A stretch of DNA of 29,535 nucleotides, taken from positions 1-29,535 of the forward strand of contig JAFUQL010000091.1 of the NCBI GenBank assembly GCA_017472375.1. The letters are read 5' to 3'. The DNA comes from Oscillospiraceae bacterium. Lineage in GTDB: Bacteria > Bacillota > Clostridia > Oscillospirales > Ruminococcaceae. The position numbers and the translations under genes are program-made. Positions 1,382 to 12,526 of the stretch are shown here, piece after piece; position 1 is the stretch's first letter, and every line of letters starts with the position of its first letter. The notes below the pieces were generated by a model that saw only the letters and a list, made by a program, of their open reading frames with translations, had not been told where the DNA came from and ran no database searches.

Positions 1382-2623
1382 TCAGTCTTCCGCCTGCTTC
1401 GGGGGCTCCGGCAGGCCGCCGGCGGCCAGCAGCAGCTCGTTGACCACCACGGCCAGCGGCCCGATGTGTCCGATGCTGTCGTTCAGATGCGACTTGCGGA
1501 TGTAGCACTCGTTGTAGGCAGGGTCATACTGGCGGCACACCTGCAAAAAGCGCTCCCAGACGTGGGGCAACTGGAACATATCTCCATAGACCACCACTGC
1601 ATCCGGCGCCAGGAAGGTCACCGAATGGCACAGGGTACAGGCCACCGATTCAATGACCTCGTCCATGGCCTGCCACATCCCGGCATCCTGCACCTGGCCC
1701 CACCAGCCGATGTTCCGGGCGCGGATCTCGCTCACATCCCCGGCCACCAGTTCATACAGGGCGGGCATGGTCTCAGGCGTACAGCCCGCGGCCACCCGCT
1801 CCGCAATGGCGTGCACCGAGGCGATGGTCTCCAGGCAGCCGTAGCGCCCGCAGCGGCAGCGCCGCCCGTCCTTGACCACCCGCACATGACCCAGCTCGCC
1901 CTCCTTGGACTTGTGGCTCTCATACACAGCGTTCTGGATGATCATGGCGGAGCCCACGCCGGGGCCCCACTTGAGGAACATCAGATTCTCCCGCTTGCGG
2001 CCCACGCCGTACACCAGCTCGGCCTCGGCAAACGCTTTGACGTTGTTTTCCACCACCATGGGGTACTTCAGGTACTTCTGCAGCTCGCCGACCACATCCA
2101 CCGGTCTCTCCCAGACACGGTAGGCAGACTGGCTGATGCCCCGCTTCCGGTCCACCGGGCCGGGCACCGACACGCCCACGCCCAGGATCTTCTCCCGGGG
2201 GATGCCCATCTCCCACATCAGCACCTTGCTCTCGTTGGCGATGGCCTTGAGGAACTCCTCCGGCTCGGCCTGCGGGTTGGTCTTGATGGTGCGCTCGGTG
2301 CGGTCGTCGCCCTTCAGGTCGCTCACCGACACCACCGTGGCGGTGGCCTCGATGCAGATGGACAGCACATAGCGGCAGGTGTAGTCGATGCCCACCAGGA
2401 TCTTTCTGCGCCCGGCGCGGCGACCCTCCTGCAATTCGCCCTTCTCCTGCAGGATGCCCGCAGCGATCAGCTCGGTGCAGATGAGGGTGACGGTGGCCGG
2501 GGTGAGGCCCAGCTTTTCAGCCAGATCCTTCCGGGACATGGCGCCCTGCTCGTTCAGCAGCCGCAGGATCGCACTGCGGTTGTTGTATTTTACATTTTCA
2601 AGATTGATGCCGGTATGTGCCAC
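1382..2623 (-). CDS. ROK-family transcriptional repressor (XylR/NagC-like), probable regulator of the SQ cluster
   Basis: N-terminal HTH (SRKDLAEKLGLTPATVTLICTEL), ROK motifs VENNVKAFAEAE and GPGVG, and the Zn motif GELGH...CRCGRYGCLE. Confidence 0.93.
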   Translation of the reverse strand: MAHTGINLENVKYNNRSAILRLLNEQGAMSRKDLAEKLGLTPATVTLICTELIAAGILQEKGELQEGRRAGRRKILVGIDYTCRYVLSICIEATATVVSVSDLKGDDRTERTIKTNPQAEPEEFLKAIANESKVLMWEMGIPREKILGVGVSVPGPVDRKRGISQSAYRVWERPVDVVGELQKYLKYPMVVENNVKAFAEAELVYGVGRKRENLMFLKWGPGVGSAMIIQNAVYESHKSKEGELGHVRVVKDGRRCRCGRYGCLETIASVHAIAERVAAGCTPETMPALYELVAGDVSEIRARNIGWWGQVQDAGMWQAMDEVIESVACTLCHSVTFLAPDAVVVYGDMFQLPHVWERFLQVCRQYDPAYNECYIRKSHLNDSIGHIGPLAVVVNELLLAAGGLPEPPKQAED

Positions 2624-2675: not shown

Positions 2676-2696
2676 TTGATTTATTGGTTTAAGTAT
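2676..2696. promoter_or_regulatory. Candidate ROK operator overlapping the -10 (autoregulation)
   Basis: TTGATTTATTGGTTTAAGTAT resembles the palindrome at 12506-12526. Confidence 0.45.
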
Positions 2697-2721
2697 ATTG
2701 GGCAAAGGCAGACAGTGTCAA
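2692..2721 (-). promoter_or_regulatory. Sigma-A promoter of the ROK gene
   Basis: Minus strand TTGACA (2721-2716), 18-nt spacer, TATACT (2697-2692). Confidence 0.65.
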
Positions 2722-2787
2722 GCGCTCCCACGCTTTATCATAGTGAATTCGCAAACTTCACATCTTTTAAAATCGTCTTTTGCACGA

Positions 2788-2826
2788 AAAAAAGCCGCAG
2801 AAACACGAAGTCTCTGCGGCTTTTTT
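2788..2826. terminator. Intrinsic (bidirectional-type) terminator ending the SQ catabolic operon
   Basis: AAAAAAGCCGCAGA-loop-TCTGCGGCTTTTTT with A/T tracts on both sides. Confidence 0.8.
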
Positions 2827-2889
2827 CAAACTTTGGGGAAAAATCCCGCTCACGCGGTCAGCATTTTGCCCGGAACGAAAATTCTGCGC

Positions 2890-4230
2890 TTAGTAGCGGC
2901 AGATCTCCATGCCCAGCATATTGCCCAGCTTCTCCAGCTCGTTGGCCACGTCGGCGTAGACCACCACGAAGTGGGGCTCCCAGCCGGCCTTGATGGTGCC
3001 GTAGACAACATCCTTGGCGGGGGCGTCGGTCTTGACCACGATGGAGGTGCCGTTGAACTGACGGGGCTTGTCCAGGGCAGCACCCTTGGCGATGAAGAAA
3101 CGGAAGCCGCCGTCGGGCTTGCGGCCCACACGGAAGACGGTCACGTTCTCGCAGGGCTCACAGCCGAAGTCCATCACGGGGCCGATCTTGCGGTTGGGAT
3201 GCACACCCACCTGAGCGCCGGTGTCCTTCCGGGCCAGGTTGCAGGCGGCCATGCCGCAGTGCCAGTAGGTGATGGTGCCTTCCTTCTCGTCCATGGACAC
3301 GGGGTCGCCGAAGAAGGTAGACTTGCCGCTCAGCTTCTGGCCGATGAACATGGACAGGGCGCCGTACACGTCAGCCTCGCAGCTGGCGGAGATGCCGTTC
3401 TTGTTCAGCAGGCTCAGAACAGTGCAGACGGGGGTGCCGAAGGACACGAAGAAGTCGGGCCAGCAGCGGCTGCTCAGGGCGCCGATGCCGTTCTCCGCCA
3501 CATAGGCCTTGTAGGCCTTGTACAGGCGGGCAAAGTCCACCACGTTCTTCTCGGGGGTCTGGTCCAGACCGCAGACGGTGTCGTTGGCCTCGGCCATCTC
3601 CTCGGCGCAGTCGGTGAACTCGTAGCCCTTGGCCTTCTCGATCAGCTCGCGGGCCTCGATGGCCTCCAGCGTGACACCGAAGGTGCTCATCAGTTCGGCG
3701 TCCAGCGCACGGCCGAAGCCGAAGCCCTGGGGGGTGTGGCCGATGGCGGCCATCTTCAGGCTCTTCAGCGCGACCATGGTCTCGGCGGCGCGGATGGCGG
3801 CGCCGATCTCGGCCTTCACCTCGGCCTCGCCGGGGGCGCCGAAGATGTACTCAAACTGGCCGTCCTTGCGGAAGGCATGGATGGCGTTGGCCGCGGAGTA
3901 AGCGCCGGTCAGGCTGTTCAGGCGCAGGCGGCCGCCGTCGATGACGGGCTCGCGCAGGGTCCACAGCACAACGGGGCAGTCGAAACGCTTCAGCACCTCG
4001 CTGGCATAGGCAGCGTTGGCGAAGGTCACGTTCTGCAGCACCACCAGATCAGGGTCGATGGTGTCCAGATAGGCGGCCAGCTCCTGCACGGTCAGCAGGA
4101 CCTTCTCGGGGTAGACGCAGGCACCGGACAGCTCGCTCAGCATCGCGACAGACTTGTCGAACTGATCCTGGGCGCTCTCCATGTGGTAAGTGCCTACGCC
4201 GATGGGAATGTAAGCAACCTGAAAGCCCAT
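2890..4230 (-). CDS. sftI: Sulfoquinovose isomerase (FucI/AraA-like fold; SqvD/SftI type)
   Basis: Motifs REP..GGRLRLNSLTG, CWPDFF, SCEAD, WHCG and GVHPNRK match my recollection of Bacillus SqvD, and the gene sits in the SQ cluster. Start set at ATG 4230 after AAGGTGA. Confidence 0.82.
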   Translation of the reverse strand: MGFQVAYIPIGVGTYHMESAQDQFDKSVAMLSELSGACVYPEKVLLTVQELAAYLDTIDPDLVVLQNVTFANAAYASEVLKRFDCPVVLWTLREPVIDGGRLRLNSLTGAYSAANAIHAFRKDGQFEYIFGAPGEAEVKAEIGAAIRAAETMVALKSLKMAAIGHTPQGFGFGRALDAELMSTFGVTLEAIEARELIEKAKGYEFTDCAEEMAEANDTVCGLDQTPEKNVVDFARLYKAYKAYVAENGIGALSSRCWPDFFVSFGTPVCTVLSLLNKNGISASCEADVYGALSMFIGQKLSGKSTFFGDPVSMDEKEGTITYWHCGMAACNLARKDTGAQVGVHPNRKIGPVMDFGCEPCENVTVFRVGRKPDGGFRFFIAKGAALDKPRQFNGTSIVVKTDAPAKDVVYGTIKAGWEPHFVVVYADVANELEKLGNMLGMEICRY

Positions 4231-4284
4231 AGTTATCACCTTTTCCTTGTCAGTTTTTTCAGTGGGGGAACGATCCGCAGCAGA

Positions 4285-5847
4285 TCAGCCCTCGGCGGCA
4301 GCGGCGTCGGCGGCGGCGTGCTCGGCAGCCATCTCCTTCTCCTGCTGGGCGTTCAGAGCCTCGATCTTCTTGTTCAGCTTCATCATGGAGACGACCAGAA
4401 CCACGGTGATGATCAGGATGACGGCAGAGATGGGACGGCGCACGAAGACGGTCACATCGCGGTCGTAGCTCATCATGGCGGTCACGAAGTTGGCCTCCAT
4501 GATGGACTCCAGGATCATGCCCAGCATCAGCGGGGTGTTGTCGATCTTCAGCAGGTTCAGCAGGTAGCTCAGCCACAGGATGACAACGGTCAGGATCAGC
4601 TCCTTGGTGTTGCCGGTGGCGGCATAAGCGCCGGCGAAGCAGAACATGATGATGCAGGGGGCCAGCAGGGTGTACTTCACCTGCACGATCTTGGCCACAG
4701 CGCGGGTCAGGACCTTACCGATGGGGTACAGCAGGATGTTGGCGATCAGACAGCCGATGATGATGGAGTAGGCCATGGGGCCCTGCTTGGTGAACATCGT
4801 GGGTCCGGGCTGGATGCCGTGCAGAATAAAGGCGCCCAGCAGCAGAGCGGTGACACCGTCACCGGGGATGCCCAGGGTCAGCAGGGGGATCATGGCAGAA
4901 CCGACCACGGCGTTGTTGGAGGACTCAGCCGCGGCGATGCCCTCCAGGCAGCCCTTGCCGAAGTTCTGGGGCTGCTTGGAGATGCGGCGGGCCTCGTTGT
5001 AGCACATGAACTGAGCCACACCGCCGCCGACGCCGGGCATGGCGCCGATGATGGAAGCGATGACCGAGGAGTACAGGGTGGCAGGCATGATGCTCTTGAT
5101 CTCCTTGCCGGTCAGACCCTCGTTGTCGATCTTGTTGGCGTCGTCCAGATGGCCGTCGGACAGCTTGAACTCACGCAGCTTGTCGGCCACCTGAGTCAGA
5201 GCGATCAGGGCGATCATGGCGGGCAGCATGTCGATGCCGTACTTCAGGATGTCCAGACCGAAGCCGTAACGGGTGACGCCGGTGACGGCGTCCATGCCGA
5301 TGCAGGCCATCAGCAGGCCCAGGCAGCCGGAGATGATGCCCTTGGCCAGGCTGTCACCGGACACGCCGGCGATCAGGCTGATGCCCAGGATGCCCATGGA
5401 GAAGTATTCGACGGAGGTGAAGCCGGCCACCAGCTTGGTGATGGGGGAAGCGCACAGCAGCAGCAGGATGGCAGAGAACAGACCGCCGAAGGTGGAGGCG
5501 AACAGAGAGGTATCCAGCGCCTTCTTGACCTTGCCCTTCTTGGCCAGAGGATAGCCGTCGAAGGTGGTGGCGATGGCGGAGTTGGTACCGGGGGTGTTCA
5601 GGGTGATGGCGCTGATGGAGCCGCCGTACATACCGCCAACGTAAACGGCCAGCAGCAGGATGATGGCGGTATCTGCGTTCTCAAAGGTGTAGGTCAGGGG
5701 CAGCATCAGGATGATGCCGAGGGTAACGCTCAGGCCGGGAATGCAGCCGATGACCATGCCGATCACCAGACCGATGAAGATGGTCAGGATGTTGCTGACG
5801 GTGAACACCATGCCGAGGGCCTGGGAAATCATCTGAAAATCAGTCAT
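4285..5847 (-). CDS. tctA: Tripartite tricarboxylate transporter large permease
   Basis: 520-aa polytopic protein with TctA motifs GMYGGSISAITLNTPG, AAESSNNA and PLLTLGIPG. Confidence 0.93.
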   Translation of the reverse strand: MTDFQMISQALGMVFTVSNILTIFIGLVIGMVIGCIPGLSVTLGIILMLPLTYTFENADTAIILLLAVYVGGMYGGSISAITLNTPGTNSAIATTFDGYPLAKKGKVKKALDTSLFASTFGGLFSAILLLLCASPITKLVAGFTSVEYFSMGILGISLIAGVSGDSLAKGIISGCLGLLMACIGMDAVTGVTRYGFGLDILKYGIDMLPAMIALIALTQVADKLREFKLSDGHLDDANKIDNEGLTGKEIKSIMPATLYSSVIASIIGAMPGVGGGVAQFMCYNEARRISKQPQNFGKGCLEGIAAAESSNNAVVGSAMIPLLTLGIPGDGVTALLLGAFILHGIQPGPTMFTKQGPMAYSIIIGCLIANILLYPIGKVLTRAVAKIVQVKYTLLAPCIIMFCFAGAYAATGNTKELILTVVILWLSYLLNLLKIDNTPLMLGMILESIMEANFVTAMMSYDRDVTVFVRRPISAVILIITVVLVVSMMKLNKKIEALNAQQEKEMAAEHAAADAAAAEG

Positions 5848-5853
5848 AATCCA

Positions 5854-6327
5854 TTAACCTCCCATAAAGAACGGCACGTCAGGCAGCGAGATGTAGAACA
5901 CATACTTGAACAGGTAGTAGATACCGATCGCAGCCGCAGCGGTAAAAATATAGATGCCAGGTTTGCGCTCGCCGCAGTACCACAGCACGATGGCGAAGAT
6001 GATGATGGAGGCCACCACGAAGCCCAGCATGATGATGCCGATGGCGTACAGAGTGATCAGGGTGATGATGAAAAGCATGGGCTTTTCCTTCTCCCAATCA
6101 AAAACGGTGATGTTCTCCTTCTTGAACACCAGGCTCTGAATGATCAGGATCGCAGAGCAGATCAGAATGCCGGTGATGAAGATGGTGGGCAGCAGACGGG
6201 GAGAGGGAGCGCCGGAATCATACGCAGGCAGACGGACCTGGCTCTCCATGGTGAAGAACATGAACAGAGCGAAGGCGCCCATGATGATGCCGGACCACAG
6301 GTAGGTCTTGATGTTGAATTTCTTCAC
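5854..6327 (-). CDS. tctB: Tripartite tricarboxylate transporter small permease
   Basis: 157 aa, about 4 TM segments, SPRLLP motif, C-terminal FKYVFYISLP. GTG start with RBS GAAAGGA, directly upstream of tctA. Confidence 0.88.
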   Translation of the reverse strand: MKKFNIKTYLWSGIIMGAFALFMFFTMESQVRLPAYDSGAPSPRLLPTIFITGILICSAILIIQSLVFKKENITVFDWEKEKPMLFIITLITLYAIGIIMLGFVVASIIIFAIVLWYCGERKPGIYIFTAAAAIGIYYLFKYVFYISLPDVPFFMGG

Positions 6328-6403
6328 GAGAAACTTCCTTTCCTGAATCTAGCAGTTCCTTCAAAATATTGCGGACATTTTGCATTTGCGCAAAATACGG
6401 CGA

Positions 6404-6446
6404 TAACGTGACCGGCGGGCCGAGGAACGACCCACCAGCCACGTTA
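6404..6446 (-). other. 19-bp RNA stem-loop in the tctC-tctB spacer
   Basis: Minus strand TAACGTGGCTGGTGGGTCG-ttcct-CGGCCCGCCGGTCACGTTA is fully paired, using 4 G-U wobbles that exist only on this strand. Confidence 0.65.
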
Positions 6447-6655
6447 CCACCTTATTGAGAGAGGAAACAGGCAATTTTATTGCGGAGGTACGCGGTTTCT
6501 GCCGGGCTGCCCCGGCGCCGCACCGCAGTGTGTGCCACAGAAGCCTTTGCCGCTTCGGATGCGCTCGAAGCGCCGCCGGCATCCTGCTGCACACATCCCG
6601 GTGAGGGCCGCAGGCAGCTTCGGCAGCAGCCGCCTATCCCCGGGAGCTTCCGCCC

Positions 6656-6683
6656 TGCCCGGCCGCATCACTGCGGCCGGGCA
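6656..6683. other. Perfect 12-bp hairpin downstream of tctC (mRNA stabiliser or attenuator)
   Basis: TGCCCGGCCGCA-tcac-TGCGGCCGGGCA, with no long U-tract. Confidence 0.6.
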
Positions 6684-6776
6684 TAACGGAGGGTCCCACT
6701 CGTCTGCCCATGTGACCAACAGGTCTCTCAGGCACCGCGCACGGTCAGGTCAGACGAGCCACGCGGAAGGAATTGG

Positions 6777-7820
6777 TTAGGCAGACAGGTTGTCGAACGC
6801 GGCAACAGCCTTGGCACAAGCCTCGTCGTAGAAGGCGACAGCCTCATCGCCGTACAGCTCGAAGCGGTTCAGCATGACGCTCTCGATCCACTCGTGGTAC
6901 TCAGCGTCGGCCCAGACAGCCTTGGTGACCTCGGTCATGGCGTCGATGAAAGCCTGATCAGCACCGGCACGGACAGCCAGAGAGCCGCCGGCAGGCAGGA
7001 TGCAGCTGGAGAAGTCGATGCTGGGATCCAGCTCGGGAGCCTTGGCGTCGCCAGCAACGGTGGGAACGGTGATGGGGCCCTCAGGAGTGACGAAGCCCTC
7101 GAAAGCGCGGTCGTTGAAAGCCAGGATGGGGATCAGAGTGCCAGCCTCGACCTCCTCCATGGCGGCCTGGGTGGTGCCCATGAAGACGTCGACCTCGCCG
7201 TTGACCAGGCCCTGCTTCTGAGCAGCGCCGCCGTCATAAGGCACGACCATAACGTTGCCGCCCATCAGAGCGCACAGGGAGCCCAGCTCCAGGTGGCAGT
7301 CAGACAGGGGGTTGCCGCCGGACATCTTCAGGGTGCCGGCCTTGGCCTTCTCCAGGATGGACTCCAGGGTCTGGTCGGGGGTGGTGTACAGGATCCAGGT
7401 ACGGTCGTCCACGGTGCCGATGGGGTACATGGCGTCGCGGTCGAACTCGACGATCTCGGTGCCGTACTCCTTGCCCAGGTCATGGCGGTAGCACAGGCCG
7501 TAGCCGAACACCAGCAGCTCCTTGGCGGAAGCATCCAGATCGGCGAAGTAGGTAGCGGCAGCGAAGCCGTCACCGCCGGTCATGTTCTCGACGATGAAGT
7601 TGTACTCGGGGTACAGACGGTTGGCCACGACCGCATACTTGCGGGCGATCAGGTCGGCGGTGCCGCCGACGCCGTAGCCGCAGATGATCTTGATGGTCTC
7701 GCCGTTGGGGTTGCCGCCGGTCTCGCCGCCAGCAGCCTCAGAAGAAGCAGCGCCGCCGCCACAGGCGACCAGGGACAGGGCCAGCACCAGAGCCAGCACA
7801 AGTGCGATGAGCTTTTTCAT
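6777..7820 (-). CDS. tctC: Tripartite tricarboxylate transporter substrate-binding lipoprotein (TctC/Bug family)
   Basis: Lipobox LVAC, and Bug-like motifs GYGVGGTADLIAR, VENMTGGDG and VPYDGGA...GEVD. Confidence 0.88.
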   Translation of the reverse strand: MKKLIALVLALVLALSLVACGGGAASSEAAGGETGGNPNGETIKIICGYGVGGTADLIARKYAVVANRLYPEYNFIVENMTGGDGFAAATYFADLDASAKELLVFGYGLCYRHDLGKEYGTEIVEFDRDAMYPIGTVDDRTWILYTTPDQTLESILEKAKAGTLKMSGGNPLSDCHLELGSLCALMGGNVMVVPYDGGAAQKQGLVNGEVDVFMGTTQAAMEEVEAGTLIPILAFNDRAFEGFVTPEGPITVPTVAGDAKAPELDPSIDFSSCILPAGGSLAVRAGADQAFIDAMTEVTKAVWADAEYHEWIESVMLNRFELYGDEAVAFYDEACAKAVAAFDNLSA

Positions 7821-7894
7821 TGTTTGATCCTCCGTTTTTTTGTTTTATTTCGACAGCAGAGGGTGCTCAGCCCTCTGATAACGAACAAAGGGGA

Positions 7895-9904
7895 TTATTT
7901 GCCGTGCTTGGCACGGATCTGCTCCATCAGGCCGGCCACCTTGCTGCCCTTCTTGTAGAAGACGGGGACAGAACCGATGGGGGCGGGGACGGTGCAGGTG
8001 CCGTGGCCGTACTCAGCGCCGGACCACAGATGGATCCAGCCGTCGCTGGGCAGGTAGACCTCACGGTCGGTCTGGGCTTCCTGCCAGACAGGGGCCACCA
8101 GAACGTCCTCACCCAGCAGGTACTCGAACTGCTCGGTGTAGCTGCGCTCGTCGGCCTCGTTGTGCAGGAACAGGGGACGCTGGACGGGGATGCCGCGGGC
8201 GGCGTTCTCGGCCACCAGCTCCTTCAGGTAGGGCATCAGCATCACATGGATGTCCACCAAGCGGGCGGTCTCTGCCATGCAGTCCGCGTCGTCGTAGTAC
8301 TGGAAGTTGGTGTCAGGGCGGTTGCCCTCGTGAGTGCGCATCACCGGGGTGAAGGCAGCCATCTCGGTCCACCGCAGGAACACTTCCTTGGTGCGCAGGT
8401 TGTCGAACAGCGAGGTGTAGCCGCCGATGTCGCTGTGGTTCAGGCCGCAGCCGATCATGCCGGCGCTCAGGGTGCCGCAGATGGTGGTGCACAGGCCGTC
8501 GTGACGGCTCAGGTCCACAGACTGGTCGCCGTTCCACAGCAGGGTGCAGTACTTCTGGCTGCCGGTGGCGCCGGCGCGCATGAAGTAGACCACATCGCCC
8601 AGCTTGCCGCTCTCGTTCACCGCGTCGTAGTTGCACTTGGCCCACAGGGCAGGCCAGTGGTTGTGCTCGATCATGGCGGAGACGCCGTTGTGCAGCACGA
8701 TGTCATCGGTGGGCAGGTACTCACCGAAGTCGGCCATCCAGCCGTCAATGCCGATGTCGATGCTGTGCTTCTTGATGACCTCGTCCTTGAACCACTCATA
8801 GGCCTCGGGCTTGGTGAAGTCGATGACACCGCAGTAGAACTCGCCGAAGTCCACCAGGTAGATGCTGCCGTCCGCCTTCTTGGCGAAGACGTCCTTCTCA
8901 AGGCCCTCCTGGTAGAGCTTGCCGCCCTGCACCAGGTAGGGATTGATGTAGCCCATGAAGCGGATGCCCCGGTCGTGCAGCTTCTGGATCTCACCGGGCA
9001 GGTCGGGATACATCTCCTCGTGGAAGTGCCAGTCCCACTGCAGGCGCTTGCCGAAGCTGGTCACGCGCTTGCCGCACCAGTCCTGGCACCACACGGCGGC
9101 CACCTTGATGCCGTTCTCGATGGACTTGTCCACCAGGCCGAAGGAGCGCTCGTTGCCGCCCTGCACGCCCACGATCAGACCGTTGTAGATCCAGTCGGGC
9201 AGTTCGGGCTGGCGGCCCAGATGGGCGGTCAGCTTCTCCAGCAGTTCCACGAAGGTGTCCGCGCCTTCGATGCGCACACTGGCGGGCACAGCCCACATCT
9301 GCAGCTCATGGAAGGTCTCGTCGCGGAAATCGAAGTCCGCGTAGGCGGTGCAGTCCACATCCACATAGTAGCGCTTGCTGCTCACGAAGGTGGGCTGGGG
9401 GTAGTTGGTGTTGTAGTAGTCGCCGCCGGCGCCGCCGTTTTCCACGTCGGAACGCCAGGTGACGTAGGTGGTCTTGTCGCGGCCCACGCCGGGCTCGCCG
9501 GTCCACAGGGGGAAGTGCCGGCCGCGCAGATCGAAGTAGGACATCTGCTCGCCGCAGCCGTAGCAGTGCTCGTCCTTGTCGGCGCGCACGCGCAGCCAGA
9601 AGCGGTTGATCTGCTCGTCCTTCTGAACAAAGTTCAGGGTGACGCACTCGCCGTCCTGCTTCACGGCCATGGTCAGGGCATCGCCCATCTCCACGGTCAG
9701 GCCCTCGGCGGTCTCCTCGATGGAGGTGATCTCCACCGGGCGGCGCTCGATGACGTAGTCCTCGATCTTGAAGTTGCCGCGGTACATATCCACGGTCTCT
9801 TTGCCGTAGCCCACATAGATCATGGGGTTGGCTTTGGTATGCTCCAGAATGGTGTGCTCACCCTTTTTCAGGACAAACTCCATCCCGTTGCGGATGATCT
9901 GCAT
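7895..9904 (-). CDS. yihQ: Sulfoquinovosidase, GH31 (YihQ/SftG type), 669 aa, no signal peptide
   Basis: Catalytic WMADFGE and WNGDQ, plus the SQase sulfonate-pocket signature QDWCGKRVTSFGKRLQWDW and HSDIGGY. RBS GAGGAGG precedes ATG 9904. Confidence 0.92.
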   Translation of the reverse strand: MQIIRNGMEFVLKKGEHTILEHTKANPMIYVGYGKETVDMYRGNFKIEDYVIERRPVEITSIEETAEGLTVEMGDALTMAVKQDGECVTLNFVQKDEQINRFWLRVRADKDEHCYGCGEQMSYFDLRGRHFPLWTGEPGVGRDKTTYVTWRSDVENGGAGGDYYNTNYPQPTFVSSKRYYVDVDCTAYADFDFRDETFHELQMWAVPASVRIEGADTFVELLEKLTAHLGRQPELPDWIYNGLIVGVQGGNERSFGLVDKSIENGIKVAAVWCQDWCGKRVTSFGKRLQWDWHFHEEMYPDLPGEIQKLHDRGIRFMGYINPYLVQGGKLYQEGLEKDVFAKKADGSIYLVDFGEFYCGVIDFTKPEAYEWFKDEVIKKHSIDIGIDGWMADFGEYLPTDDIVLHNGVSAMIEHNHWPALWAKCNYDAVNESGKLGDVVYFMRAGATGSQKYCTLLWNGDQSVDLSRHDGLCTTICGTLSAGMIGCGLNHSDIGGYTSLFDNLRTKEVFLRWTEMAAFTPVMRTHEGNRPDTNFQYYDDADCMAETARLVDIHVMLMPYLKELVAENAARGIPVQRPLFLHNEADERSYTEQFEYLLGEDVLVAPVWQEAQTDREVYLPSDGWIHLWSGAEYGHGTCTVPAPIGSVPVFYKKGSKVAGLMEQIRAKHGK

Positions 9905-9939
9905 TGCAGTGCCCTCCTCAGAGTTTGATTTGGGGATGC

Positions 9940-10605
9940 TCAGTACTTCAGCTCCTTGTTCTCGCCCAGCAGGCCGGGGAACGCGCCCTGTTTGATCAGG
10001 GGCTCGCGCTCGGGGTGGGCGATGACCCACTTGTTGCGCTGCAGCAGGAGCTTTGCCTCGCCCTCGGGGATGTCCTCACCGTGGGGCCAGGGGGTGTTGG
10101 TGCCGCGGGGCAGCACCACGATGCCCTTGAAGCCCTCGTCGCACACGCGGCAGGGGGACAGGTGCAGGGTGGTCTGGTACATCTCGATGGCGGTGCCCTT
10201 CTTCACGAAGAAGGGCCGGGCGTCCTCCACCCGGTAGGTGCCGTCCTTGATGAGCCAGCTGTGGCCCAGCACCAGCATGAAGTCGGTGACAGCGATGTTG
10301 ATCTCGCTGCCCTTGTGGTACTCGAAGCCGTTGTAGGTGGTGTTGCGGCCGTTGCAGTAGCCGATCTGGATGGGCATGCCGCCGTACAGAACGTTCTGCA
10401 TCCGCTCGAACACGGGGTCGGCCTCCATCTCGGGGACGGAGGGGACGTAGACGTTGCCGTTCTCGGGGATAGAGGTGTTCTGCTCCATGTGGGCGATCAG
10501 ACCGGAGAAATCGTACCCGGTGACCACCCGGCCGTAGGGAGCGAACGCCTCATCGAACACCGACAGCACCTTCACGTCGTTGACCTGATTCAGACGCTCG
10601 ATCAT
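9940..10605 (-). CDS. sftX: DUF4867 cupin-like protein (SftX type), function unknown
   Basis: Motifs FAPYGRVV, QIGYCNGRN, EYHKGSEIN, LHLSPC and LLQRNKWVIAHPE, in the position expected for sulfo-TAL clusters. Start set at ATG 10605 after GAGGTG. Confidence 0.8.
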   Translation of the reverse strand: MIERLNQVNDVKVLSVFDEAFAPYGRVVTGYDFSGLIAHMEQNTSIPENGNVYVPSVPEMEADPVFERMQNVLYGGMPIQIGYCNGRNTTYNGFEYHKGSEINIAVTDFMLVLGHSWLIKDGTYRVEDARPFFVKKGTAIEMYQTTLHLSPCRVCDEGFKGIVVLPRGTNTPWPHGEDIPEGEAKLLLQRNKWVIAHPEREPLIKQGAFPGLLGENKELKY

Positions 10606-10617
10606 GCCGTTCACCTC

Positions 10618-11478
10618 TTACTTCTGGTCACGGACGACCTTGTAGGTGGCGCAGAAGTCCTCTTTGCCGTAGCCGGCAGCCAGGGCATCCTGGTAGACGC
10701 GCTGCACGTTGGCCTCACCGGGCATGCTCACGCCCATCTCGGCGGCCAGGCTCATGCAGATGTTGATGTCCTTGGCCATGTTCTCGATGGAGAAGGCAGT
10801 GGTCCAGTCCTCGGCGGCGATGGGGGCGTTCTTGGTGTCCAGATAGAAGCACTGGCCGCCGCCGTAGCTGATGGCGGTGGCGAAGGTCTTGGGATCGATG
10901 CCGAACTTGGAGGCCAGCACCAGGTTCTCGTTGACGCCGTTCTGGATCTGGCCGACCATGGCGTTGTGGCAGATCTTCATGACCAGGCCCTTGCCGTTGT
11001 CGCCCATGCGGATGACGTTGTTGCCCATGTACAGCAGGATGGGACGCATGGCCTCGTAAACGGCCTCGTCGCCGCCCACATAGATGCCCAGAACGCCGGC
11101 GATGGCGGCGGGCTTGGACTTCACGACGGGAGCATCGATGAACTGAGCGCCGGTGGCCTTGACCATCTTGCTGATCTCAACGGAAACGCTGGGATCGATG
11201 GTGCTCATGTCGATGCAGGTCTTGCCCTCGCCCAGCACGGGCAGGATCTCCTTGTACACGGACATGGAGTGCTCGCTCTTCGGGACCATGGAGATGATGA
11301 CGTCGGAAGCCTTGGCCAGCTCCACAGAGCTCTCGCAGCCCACGGCGCCCTTGCTCACCAGCAGGTCGATCTTCTCCTTCACGAAGTCAAAGACATAGAC
11401 GGTGTCGTCATGCTTCTTGACGATGTTCTCGCTCATGGACTCGCCCATGATGCCCAGACCGATAAAACCGATTTTCAT
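10618..11478 (-). CDS. sftR: Beta-hydroxyacid dehydrogenase family; probable 3-sulfolactaldehyde reductase (DHPS-forming)
   Basis: IGFIGLGIMG Rossmann motif, catalytic KICHN, substrate loop DAPVVKS instead of the generic DAPVSGG, and cluster context. Confidence 0.8.
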   Translation of the reverse strand: MKIGFIGLGIMGESMSENIVKKHDDTVYVFDFVKEKIDLLVSKGAVGCESSVELAKASDVIISMVPKSEHSMSVYKEILPVLGEGKTCIDMSTIDPSVSVEISKMVKATGAQFIDAPVVKSKPAAIAGVLGIYVGGDEAVYEAMRPILLYMGNNVIRMGDNGKGLVMKICHNAMVGQIQNGVNENLVLASKFGIDPKTFATAISYGGGQCFYLDTKNAPIAAEDWTTAFSIENMAKDINICMSLAAEMGVSMPGEANVQRVYQDALAAGYGKEDFCATYKVVRDQK

Positions 11479-11519
11479 CTTGCGTACTTCCTTTCTGTGC
11501 TGCGGTCAAGCAGGGGTGC

Positions 11520-12206
11520 TTACTCGGTGGCGGTGTTGTCCCAGGCGTTGATGAAGGTCTTCAGACCCTGATCGGTGTAGGCATGCTTGATGCAATCCTG
11601 GTACACAGCCAGACCGGTGGTGACGATGTCGGCGCCGGCAACAGCGCAGTCCACGATCTGCTTGGGAGTACGGACAGCGGCGCAGATGATCTCAGTCTTG
11701 CCGTAGAAGCCGTAGTTCTTGTAGATGTCAACGATGTTCTGGATGTAGGTCTTGCAGTCCTCGCCGTTGGCCTCCTTCCAGCCGATGAAGGGGGACACGA
11801 ACAGGGAGCCGTTCTTGGCGGGCAGGATAGCCTGAGCGGGGCTGAAGATCAGGGTGACGTTGGTGCGGATGCCCATGGCCTCCAGCTTGCGGGCGGCGGT
11901 GACACCGGCCTCGGTGCAGGGGATCTTGATGACGAAGTTGGGGCTGATGGGGGCGATCTCCTGAGCCATGGCGACCATCTCATCGGCGTCGTCCAGATGG
12001 GGGTTCAGCTCGACGGACACGGGGAACTTCTCGTAGCCCTCCAGGCCCTCCTCCTTGATCCAGTTGGCGATGTCGGTGATGGCAGTCTTGAAGGGCTTGC
12101 CGCTCACCATGATGTGGCGGGGGTTGGTGGTGACGCCGTCGATGCCGAAGGTCTCGTAAGCGTACTTGATCTCGTCCAGCTTAGCGCTATCCAGGAAAAA
12201 TTTCAT
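11520..12206 (-). CDS. sftT: 6-deoxy-6-sulfofructose transaldolase (SftT/SqvA type), 228 aa
   Basis: TAL/FSA fold with Schiff-base IKIP. TTNPRH (Arg), SPFIGWKE (Trp) and AAVR match the sulfonate-binding residues I recall for Bacillus sulfofructose transaldolase. RBS GAGGAGG. Confidence 0.9.
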   Translation of the reverse strand: MKFFLDSAKLDEIKYAYETFGIDGVTTNPRHIMVSGKPFKTAITDIANWIKEEGLEGYEKFPVSVELNPHLDDADEMVAMAQEIAPISPNFVIKIPCTEAGVTAARKLEAMGIRTNVTLIFSPAQAILPAKNGSLFVSPFIGWKEANGEDCKTYIQNIVDIYKNYGFYGKTEIICAAVRTPKQIVDCAVAGADIVTTGLAVYQDCIKHAYTDQGLKTFINAWDNTATE

Positions 12207-12318
12207 TGGTGTTTCCTCCTCGATTTCTTCTCTCAACAGGTTTGTAGGCGAACGTTTGCGGATGATCATGGGTGGATGTTCGGACGTGTTCGGGGGAATC
12301 CAGGCCGCGCGGCACTTC

Positions 12319-12344
12319 ATTGTTAATTTTATAAATTAATCAAT
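12319..12344. promoter_or_regulatory. AT-rich palindrome in the operon leader, candidate second operator
   Basis: ATTG-TTAATTT-tat-AAATTAA-t-CAAT shares the TTAATCAA half-site with 12506-12526. Confidence 0.45.
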
Positions 12345-12442
12345 AAGATCCGACGTCTTACCCTTGTGTCTTGCGGTATGATATTTTGTCCCTCACCCAC
12401 AAGTTTCTGGGTTGTTCCTGTATTTCCGCCTCTTGCGTGACA

Positions 12443-12471
12443 ATAATATAGCCAAAATGCACATGTGTCAA
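12443..12471 (-). promoter_or_regulatory. Sigma-A promoter of the sulfo-TAL operon
   Basis: Minus strand TTGACA-17 nt-TATTAT. Confidence 0.75.
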
Positions 12472-12505
12472 CAGTTTTTTGTCGTCCAACGCGCTTTTTG
12501 GTTAT

Positions 12506-12526
12506 TTGCTTAAATATTTTAATCAA
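12506..12526. promoter_or_regulatory. 21-bp palindrome, candidate ROK operator
   Basis: TTG-C-TTAAA-tat-TTTAA-T-CAA. Confidence 0.55.

Follow-up and report, generated by a model that had tools for sequence, protein, structure and literature searches.

The window analysed here, a stretch of 29,535 nucleotides (nt) on contig JAFUQL010000091.1 of an Oscillospiraceae bacterium, carries a gene cluster for the catabolism of the sulfonated sugar sulfoquinovose (SQ). The last gene of the string encodes a transcription regulator of the ROK family. Three related palindromes lie at the two promoters from which these genes are predicted to be transcribed. We consider it probable that these palindromes are the operators of the ROK regulator (1382-2623) and that this protein is a local repressor of the sulfofructose transaldolase (sulfo-SFT) regulon. 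The host genome is a metagenome-assembled genome (MAG) with a GC content of 63%, and it is 67% complete. The coding sequences of the cluster match the host at about 62% GC; the operators are AT-rich, and GC drops to 42-48% in both regulatory regions. The cluster genes and the ROK gene are all on the minus strand and are given here in order downstream from position 12206, together with a hairpin between the last two genes.

11520-12206, minus strand: sftT, candidate sulfofructose transaldolase of the Fsa/TalC type, 228 amino acids (PF00923, 4e-43)
10618-11478, minus strand: candidate sulfolactaldehyde (SLA) reductase of the HIBADH type (PF03446 and PF14833)
9940-10614, minus strand: DUF4867 protein of the SftX type (PF16161, 4e-76)
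7895-9904, minus strand: candidate GH31 sulfoquinovosidase (NF007746, PRK10426; 962 bits, above the cut-off of 553)
4285-7820, minus strand: tripartite tricarboxylate-type transporter (TTT), with tctC at 6777-7820, tctB at 5854-6327 and tctA at 4285-5847
2890-4239, minus strand: sftI, candidate sulfoquinovose isomerase, fucose-isomerase-like (best match NF048012, the SftI model)
2788-2826, minus strand: likely terminator hairpin (inverted repeat) in the sftI-ROK gap, flanked by runs of A and T
1382-2623, minus strand: ROK-family transcription regulator, 413 amino acids, with a winged helix-turn-helix (HTH), a Gly/Arg-rich linker and a ROK domain with a zinc motif

All five families of the sulfo-SFT pathway (SftT, SftI, GH31 sulfoquinovosidase, SLA reductase and DUF4867) are present in this one co-oriented cluster, and its gene order is common to loci of Clostridium symbiosum, Agathobacter and Faecalibacterium. 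Its gene content identifies it as a sulfo-SFT (transaldolase) sulfoquinovose cluster like those known in Firmicutes (PMC7491151, PMC11968277). The SftX protein has been described in PMC11968277. The sftT product is 74-89% identical to the product of the first gene of syntenic sulfo-SFT clusters. Several of the family matches fall under their cut-offs: the reductase candidate scores 152 bits against NF012005 (sulfolactaldehyde 3-reductase, cut-off 348), the sftI candidate 423 bits against NF048012 (1.4e-126, cut-off 700), and, among the transporter families (PF03401, PF07331 and PF01970), PF03401 reaches 22.4 bits against a cut-off of 27 bits. The tctCBA transporter is syntenic in most orthologous clusters. 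The hairpin after sftI is a 17-nt inverted repeat, 94% complementary; its T run was read from the sequence, and it is absent from the terminator-scan list.

The regulatory features, in the same direction, are as follows.

12506-12526, minus strand: predicted distal operator O1, minus-strand sequence TTGATTAAAATATTTAAGCAA; 23.9 bits, top match in the assembly
12494-12505, minus strand: conserved A-rich block after O1, minus-strand sequence ATAACCAAAAAG; AtAACgAAAA in orthologues
12443-12471, minus strand: operon promoter TTGACA-17-TATTAT, 11/12 consensus, the sole such match in the region
12323-12343, minus strand: predicted leader operator O2, minus-strand sequence TTGATTAATTTATAAAATTAA; one perfect half-site; 15.1 bits, rank 2
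2692-2721, minus strand: promoter of the ROK gene, TTGACA-18-TATACT, 11/12 consensus
2676-2696, minus strand: predicted autoregulatory operator OR, minus-strand sequence ATACTTAAACCAATAAATCAA; 13.1 bits, rank 3

The initial annotation had proposed a palindrome shared by both promoters and a third related copy in the operon leader. All three are where it had placed them. The third is the site at 12323-12343, within a claimed span of 12319-12344 that is itself palindromic (an inverted repeat, 80% complementary). By hand count, the reverse complement of 12506-12526 agrees with 2676-2696 at 14 of the first 20 positions, as had been claimed. A pairwise match of 14/20 alone is weak evidence, and the three sites could in principle be a chance likeness among AT-rich promoter sequences. 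The motif was followed into other genomes by collecting 80 genomic loci that encode ROK relatives using an alignment-based contig scan, 29 of which were extended upstream of sftT; a single-protein contig scan with the window ROK protein gave no matches. An iterative weight matrix was built from the orthologous upstream regions only, with the window left out. Its consensus is the 21-mer TTRATTAA-N5-TTAAYYAA. The positions of highest information are 5, 6, 16 and 17 of 21 (1.84-1.92 bits), i.e., TT/AA at ±5,6 from the centre.

When the whole assembly (1,864,104 positions, 1.86 Mb) was scanned with this matrix, only eight matches reached 8 bits or more, and the top three distinct sites were those at 12506, 12323 and 2676. 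Below OR there followed an overlapping register of the 12323 site (11.7 bits), and the next unrelated match scored 11.0 bits. Similar AT-rich matches are thus not common across the genome, since the three sites rank 1-3 among all positions. Dinucleotide shuffles of both intergenic regions reached the observed score in 0/5000 cases for O1, 1/5000 for O2 and 1/5000 for OR. When every 5-mer inverted dyad with a spacer of 0-15 was enumerated without a seed in 51 orthologous regions, ATTAA-N5-TTAAT ranked first. This dyad occurs in 25 of the 51 regions compared with 0.33 in shuffles, and no dyad rose above 5 in any shuffle, so the motif is conserved upstream of orthologous sftT genes. The assembly ranking, the unseeded dyad search and the shuffles together rule out chance similarity, and the motif is kept in dozens of genomes at fixed positions; the probability that we leave to coincidence is negligible.

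The motif is also concentrated in and around sulfo-SFT clusters. In 1.335 Mb of loci, 79 matches of at least 13 bits were found; of these, 51 precede sftT by no more than 450 nt and 8 precede a second GH31 gene that stands beside sulfo-SFT clusters (40% identity to the window GH31). Other examined matches lie upstream of cluster-adjacent transporter genes (CitMHS/DASS, four; MFS_2, EamA and SSF, one each). Only two of the matches at this threshold were noise-like. When ORF-free segments of equal AT content (0.64) were compared, there were 36 matches in 14.2 kb inside clusters versus 7 in 30.5 kb outside, and most of the 7 still border cluster genes. This distribution indicates that the motif defines a small regulon of sulfoquinovose catabolic and transport genes, and it nominates the site-bearing CitMHS/DASS, MFS_2, EamA and SSF genes as candidate sulfosugar importers or product exporters. 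Sites before transporter or second GH31 genes are located in loci L058 (4531), L060 (4643), L057 (11266), L059 (3217 and 3305), L064 (5083 and 5242), L019 (1021), L016 (12141 and 12442) and L081 (1477).

In about 60 of the 80 loci, synteny between the ROK gene and the sulfo-SFT cluster is preserved. The shared string consists of sftT, the reductase gene, the DUF4867 gene, the GH31 gene, tctCBA or another transporter, and sftI, with the ROK gene last. The syntenic loci belong to Lachnospiraceae, Faecalibacterium, Enterocloster, C. symbiosum, Agathobacter, Butyrivibrio, Pseudobutyrivibrio and Oribacterium. A search for ROK orthologues in 60 relatives of the window genome was negative, as was one for SftT orthologues in 400 sampled genomes of its phylum. 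Controls were therefore drawn from the family of G067, a C. symbiosum genome (Lachnospiraceae), by screening a sample of 401 genomes with SftT, so that carriers were selected independently of the ROK gene. SftT was present in 24 of the 401 Lachnospiraceae genomes, and the sulfo-SFT cluster is patchily distributed. Among 22 new carriers, 15 encode a ROK orthologue on the contig that bears sftT, and another 3 a more distant ROK-like gene. A site of 19-26 bits marks the operon start in all ROK-linked clusters whose flanks were long enough (14/14), either upstream of sftT or upstream of the GH31 gene where that gene comes first. In the ROK-less clusters L200 and L201, which have the same gene order and full flanks, no site was found at the operon start.

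Other candidate regulator genes stand beside the operon in L200 and L201, which suggests regulator displacement. L201 encodes at 6352-7824 a protein of 490 amino acids with an aminotransferase-like domain after a 136-residue N-terminus, giving it a MocR-like look. The open reading frame (ORF) at 6949-7812 of L200 encodes 287 amino acids and has no Pfam match.

Motif and protein also agree with what is known of the family. The only invariant positions of NagC/Mlc operators are TT/AA at ±5,6, and the Gly/Arg-rich linker with a conserved GR acts as the specificity wing of ROK regulators (PMC4288165). The positions of highest information in our matrix are the same TT/AA at ±5,6. Local ROK regulators recognize palindromes of about 23 bp and are commonly autoregulated (PMC3553997). 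In the present clade, the HTH is nearly invariant, which fits a stable motif. The alternative that another factor travelling with sulfo-SFT clusters, or a general AT-binding protein, binds the palindrome while the ROK protein recognizes something else is, in our view, very unlikely. It draws on the AT-richness of the motif and on three clusters that carry similar sites with only distant ROK-like genes (28-33% identity). However, the ROK gene is the only regulator gene seen within the shared cluster in the loci examined, the two ROK-less clusters with the same gene order lack the motif, and the motif obeys the TT/AA rule of the ROK family (PMC4288165). Furthermore, conservation of the motif goes together with that of the HTH (GLTPATVT) and of the linker (RAGRRK), and few background matches occur outside the clusters when AT content is equal. 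The proposal of the initial annotation that a ROK repressor acts at these operators is thus supported by synteny, by the conservation of the palindrome at operon starts, by its co-occurrence with the ROK gene and by the TT/AA rule.

The arrangement at the operon promoter bears on the direction of control. TTGACA-17-TATTAT had been described as flanked by two sites, and indeed their centres lie on either side of it, at 12516 and 12333, 183 bp apart. The centre of O1 is 45 nt upstream of the first -35 base, about -80 from the inferred start site; O2 lies at about +103, with its centre 127 nt upstream of the sftT ATG. The offset of 44-45 nt between O1 and the -35 is common to about 20 loci including the window, and orthologues have a homologous promoter at the same offset from O1. 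Most orthologues have a second site in the 5' untranslated region, with its centre 24-61 nt from the ATG (127 nt in the window). The O1-O2 distance is 87-183 bp and falls into classes of approximately 88, 108, 131, 152, 164, 172 and 183 bp. Faecalibacterium-type loci carry both sites downstream of a promoter with 12/12 consensus, and Oribacterium-type loci carry a single site after the -10. The A-rich block after O1 recurs in 19 loci whose O1-to-promoter segments were aligned in register; it may extend the footprint, bend the DNA as an A-tract or act as an UP-like element. A riboswitch in the 230-nt leader was considered and dropped because no Rfam family was found there.

These positions, inside or just after the -10 and downstream of promoters, point to repression. 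NagC, a ROK repressor of E. coli, uses paired operators around promoters and DNA looping, and it also activates glmUS. By analogy with NagC, the arrangement is most simply read as that of a repressor which depends on the downstream site and probably on cooperation between O1 and O2. The main rival, which we regard as unlikely, is that the ROK protein binds the sites but is mainly an activator or a dual regulator; it would recruit RNA polymerase from O1 in the presence of the sulfosugar, and the downstream sites would be secondary. In about 20 loci, the O1 centre keeps its distance from the downstream -35 despite the variation in O1-O2 distance, and a fixed offset from the promoter is what activator contact would require. 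Together with the conserved A-rich block after O1, this leaves room for a possible activating or architectural role of O1. However, the sites overlap the -10 and the start site at ROK promoters. Both window promoters are near-consensus (11/12), so no activator should be needed. The sites of the Faecalibacterium and Oribacterium types are located only downstream of or on the promoter, and single-site operons have their site next to the first gene.

In the repressor model, we infer physical binding, the sign of regulation, looping and release by an effector from the observations above. When no sulfosugar is available, the ROK protein would bind TTRATTAA-N5-TTAAYYAA sites, presumably as a dimer or tetramer as other ROK repressors do. 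It would occupy O1 (about -80) and O2 (about +103) at the operon and repress transcription in one of two ways: the two sites could be brought together around the promoter, or elongation could be stopped at O2. On the ROK promoter, it would cover the -10 and the start site and limit its own synthesis. Binding of SQ, sulfofructose (SF) or SQ-glycerol in the ROK domain would then release the protein from DNA. These three candidate effectors are suggested by the content of the regulon and by the published induction of Sft proteins by SQ. According to PMC7491151, the Sft proteins of C. symbiosum and E. rectale are detected on SQ but not on glucose. The loci of C. symbiosum ATCC 14940 (L012/L097) and of an Agathobacter MAG (L042) contain the ROK gene and strong sites.

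The initial annotation had also proposed that the ROK gene is autoregulated, noting that the site at 2676-2696 overlaps its -10. The overlap is real: the site starts at the second base of TATACT and covers the inferred start site. The modest score of OR is explained by its left half, which must double as the -10. The closest protein matches to the ROK protein (P0001-P0004) have 63-69% identity, and partial close relatives (L164, L111, L162 and L166) were obtained from a metagenome scan. In the closest relatives, L164 and L111, the site likewise begins at the second base of the -10 (TATTAT). In L057, L144 and L148, the site at the ROK promoter overlaps the last -10 base or starts a few bases after it, and in standalone distant orthologues it abuts the -10. 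The overlap of site and -10 fits autorepression in the lineage of the window. A search of the sftI-ROK gap in all orthologues mostly yielded no site. Most orthologues thus appear to lack dedicated autoregulation, which would be limited to some lineages, and those without the gap site are probably co-transcribed with the operon. The claim of autoregulation is therefore supported for the window lineage and does not extend to most orthologues.

Several points weigh against the ROK repressor model as a whole. From about -80, O1 cannot alone block RNA polymerase; it sits at a class I activator position, where a dual or activating role is possible. The O1-O2 distances share a helical phase only weakly (p = 0.07 after collapse to distance classes); phasing is significant only when related loci are counted as independent. 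O2 and OR are only moderate sites (15.1 and 13.1 bits), and the gap before most ROK orthologues is empty of a site. The ROK-less control consists of two clusters only. The initial seed consensus for the matrix was taken from the window's own sites, which is offset by the rediscovery of the motif in the unseeded search. Since the assembly is 67% complete, other sites may exist. Full-text literature searches found no binding or expression data on this ROK protein.

The ROK protein has the domain order of the family. Its N-terminal winged HTH (HTH_24 and MarR matches, residues 17-58) contains the nearly invariant GLTPATVT. The linker or wing reads EGRRAGRRK, in which R69, G71, R72 and K74 are invariant. 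The ROK sugar-binding domain (PF00480, E = 1.1e-36) spans residues 89-393. The zinc motif, His followed by CxCGxxGC, reads GHVRVVKDGRRCRCGRYGCLE; its residues H246, C256, C258 and C263 are invariant, and it aligns with its counterpart in Lmo0178, VC2007 and glucokinase. K218 and W219 are invariant in the homologue alignment, and the glycine loop reads (K/R)WGPG in the clade.

The initial annotation had read ENN at the sugar-binding motif instead of the usual END, and this reading is genuine. E192, N193 and N194 lie in VENNVKAFA. N193 and N194 are invariant in 32 homologues, an invariance that is partly due to ascertainment because [ED]NNV[KN]AFA was one of the two patterns used to collect loci; NN is also found in the results of a word-based protein search and in loci found by the other pattern. 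At this point, aligned structures have N-D in VC2007, glucokinase and human ManNAc kinase, and K-N in Lmo0178. The change from Asp to Asn is thus not unique to the clade. The N-terminal ROK strand, where loss of the kinase ATP-binding motif would distinguish a regulator from a kinase, reads ICIEATAT, and the position of the catalytic Asp is Asn. In ROK kinases, this Asp acts as catalytic base on the 6-OH of the sugar, so that an uncharged Asn combined with Lys/Trp would be suited to a 6-sulfonate. Known SQ enzymes rely on a comparable set of Arg/Trp/Tyr residues. The clade may serve gut and rumen Clostridia as their dedicated sulfosugar sensor and may be the first ROK group with an anionic sulfonated effector, with the clade-invariant Asn and Lys/Arg-Trp forming a sulfonate pocket and a paralogue in locus L047 extending the clade to other organosulfonates. 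We see the arguments for and against this proposal as evenly balanced.

L047 (3-7826) encodes a ROK paralogue of 45% identity with the same NN and KWGPG motifs. It stands directly after tctCBA and genes for a glycyl-radical enzyme resembling pyruvate formate-lyase and its activase. The arrangement could represent an organosulfonate lyase cluster controlled by a related regulator.

Among known systems, NagC and Mlc of E. coli share with the window protein the winged HTH, the Gly/Arg-rich linker, the zinc-site ROK domain and AT-rich palindromic operators with TT/AA at ±5,6. However, the protein is not their orthologue: it scores 144 against the NagC model NF047937 (cut-off 650) and 136 against the Mlc model NF049930 (cut-off 530). 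The regulon here is for sulfoquinovose catabolism in Clostridia, and the core of the site spans 21 bp, not 23 bp. In the window clade, Asn-Asn replaces the canonical Asn-Asp of the sugar site, and the glycine loop is (K/R)WGPG. The best match of solved structure is Lmo0178, a ROK repressor of Listeria monocytogenes (PDB 5F7P/5F7Q/5F7R; E = 8e-32, residues 8-271). It has the same domain order and also has Asn for the canonical Asp (VDKNIN versus VENNVK in the window). Lmo0178 is, however, a distant relative from another gene cluster and has no KW before its glycine loop (SVGAGLG). The local ROK regulons of Thermotogae (PMC3553997) and XylR of Bacillus are similar in that a local ROK repressor acts at a palindrome of about 23 bp upstream of sugar-catabolic or transporter operons and is autoregulated. 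Their sugars are neutral, whereas the pathway substrate here is an anionic sulfonated sugar.

Regulators of other families are known from sulfosugar gene clusters elsewhere. CsqR (YihW) of E. coli is a cluster-encoded repressor of sulfoglycolysis that is released by SQ, SQ-glycerol and sulforhamnose (PMC8006165). It resembles the window regulator in outline, as a cluster-encoded repressor of sulfosugar genes. However, CsqR belongs to the DeoR family, serves the sulfo-Embden-Meyerhof-Parnas (sulfo-EMP) pathway and binds cooperatively along the yihUV spacer; its fold and operator are unrelated. No DeoR family appeared among the Pfam or NCBIfam matches of the window ROK protein. The sft cluster of Bacillus aryabhattai has a GntR-type regulator instead (PMC7491151).

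Full-text literature searches found no paper linking ROK proteins to sulfoquinovose, and the main sulfo-SFT papers make no mention of a ROK regulator. In the literature searched, there was likewise no report of an anionic sulfonated effector for ROK proteins and no account of the induction switch of sulfo-SFT clusters in Firmicutes; only the DeoR-type CsqR of E. coli and the GntR-type gene of Bacillus are mentioned. The model joins an ordinary ROK mechanism to a new regulon and probably to a new effector class. Judging from the conserved sites, the same ROK/operator switch appears to operate in many gut Clostridia. A few prominent gut bacteria, E. rectale among them, use sulfoquinovose as a nutrient, and the product 2,3-dihydroxypropane-1-sulfonate (DHPS) is converted to hydrogen sulfide (PMC8397734). 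A defined operator with its cognate regulator makes a testable model of the regulon. The motif provides a tool for annotating SQ regulons in metagenomes, including unassigned TTT, DASS/CitMHS, MFS_2, EamA and SSF transporters, and the pair may serve as a sulfosugar biosensor part. If true, the model adds an anionic effector to the ROK family.

Some further features of the window were observed. Between tctC and tctB lies a unique non-coding gap of 449 nt (6328-6776, 65% GC). Relatives have a gene for a membrane protein of 248 amino acids between the GH31 gene and tctC (L004 4458-5204), which looks like a TauE/SafE-type exporter; this gene is absent from the window, and no copy was found in the assembly. 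The ROK gene is followed, in the same orientation, by a gene for a LytTR-type response regulator (501-1211), for which no connection with the sulfoquinovose regulon was seen. The left end of the window overlaps a membrane-protein ORF.

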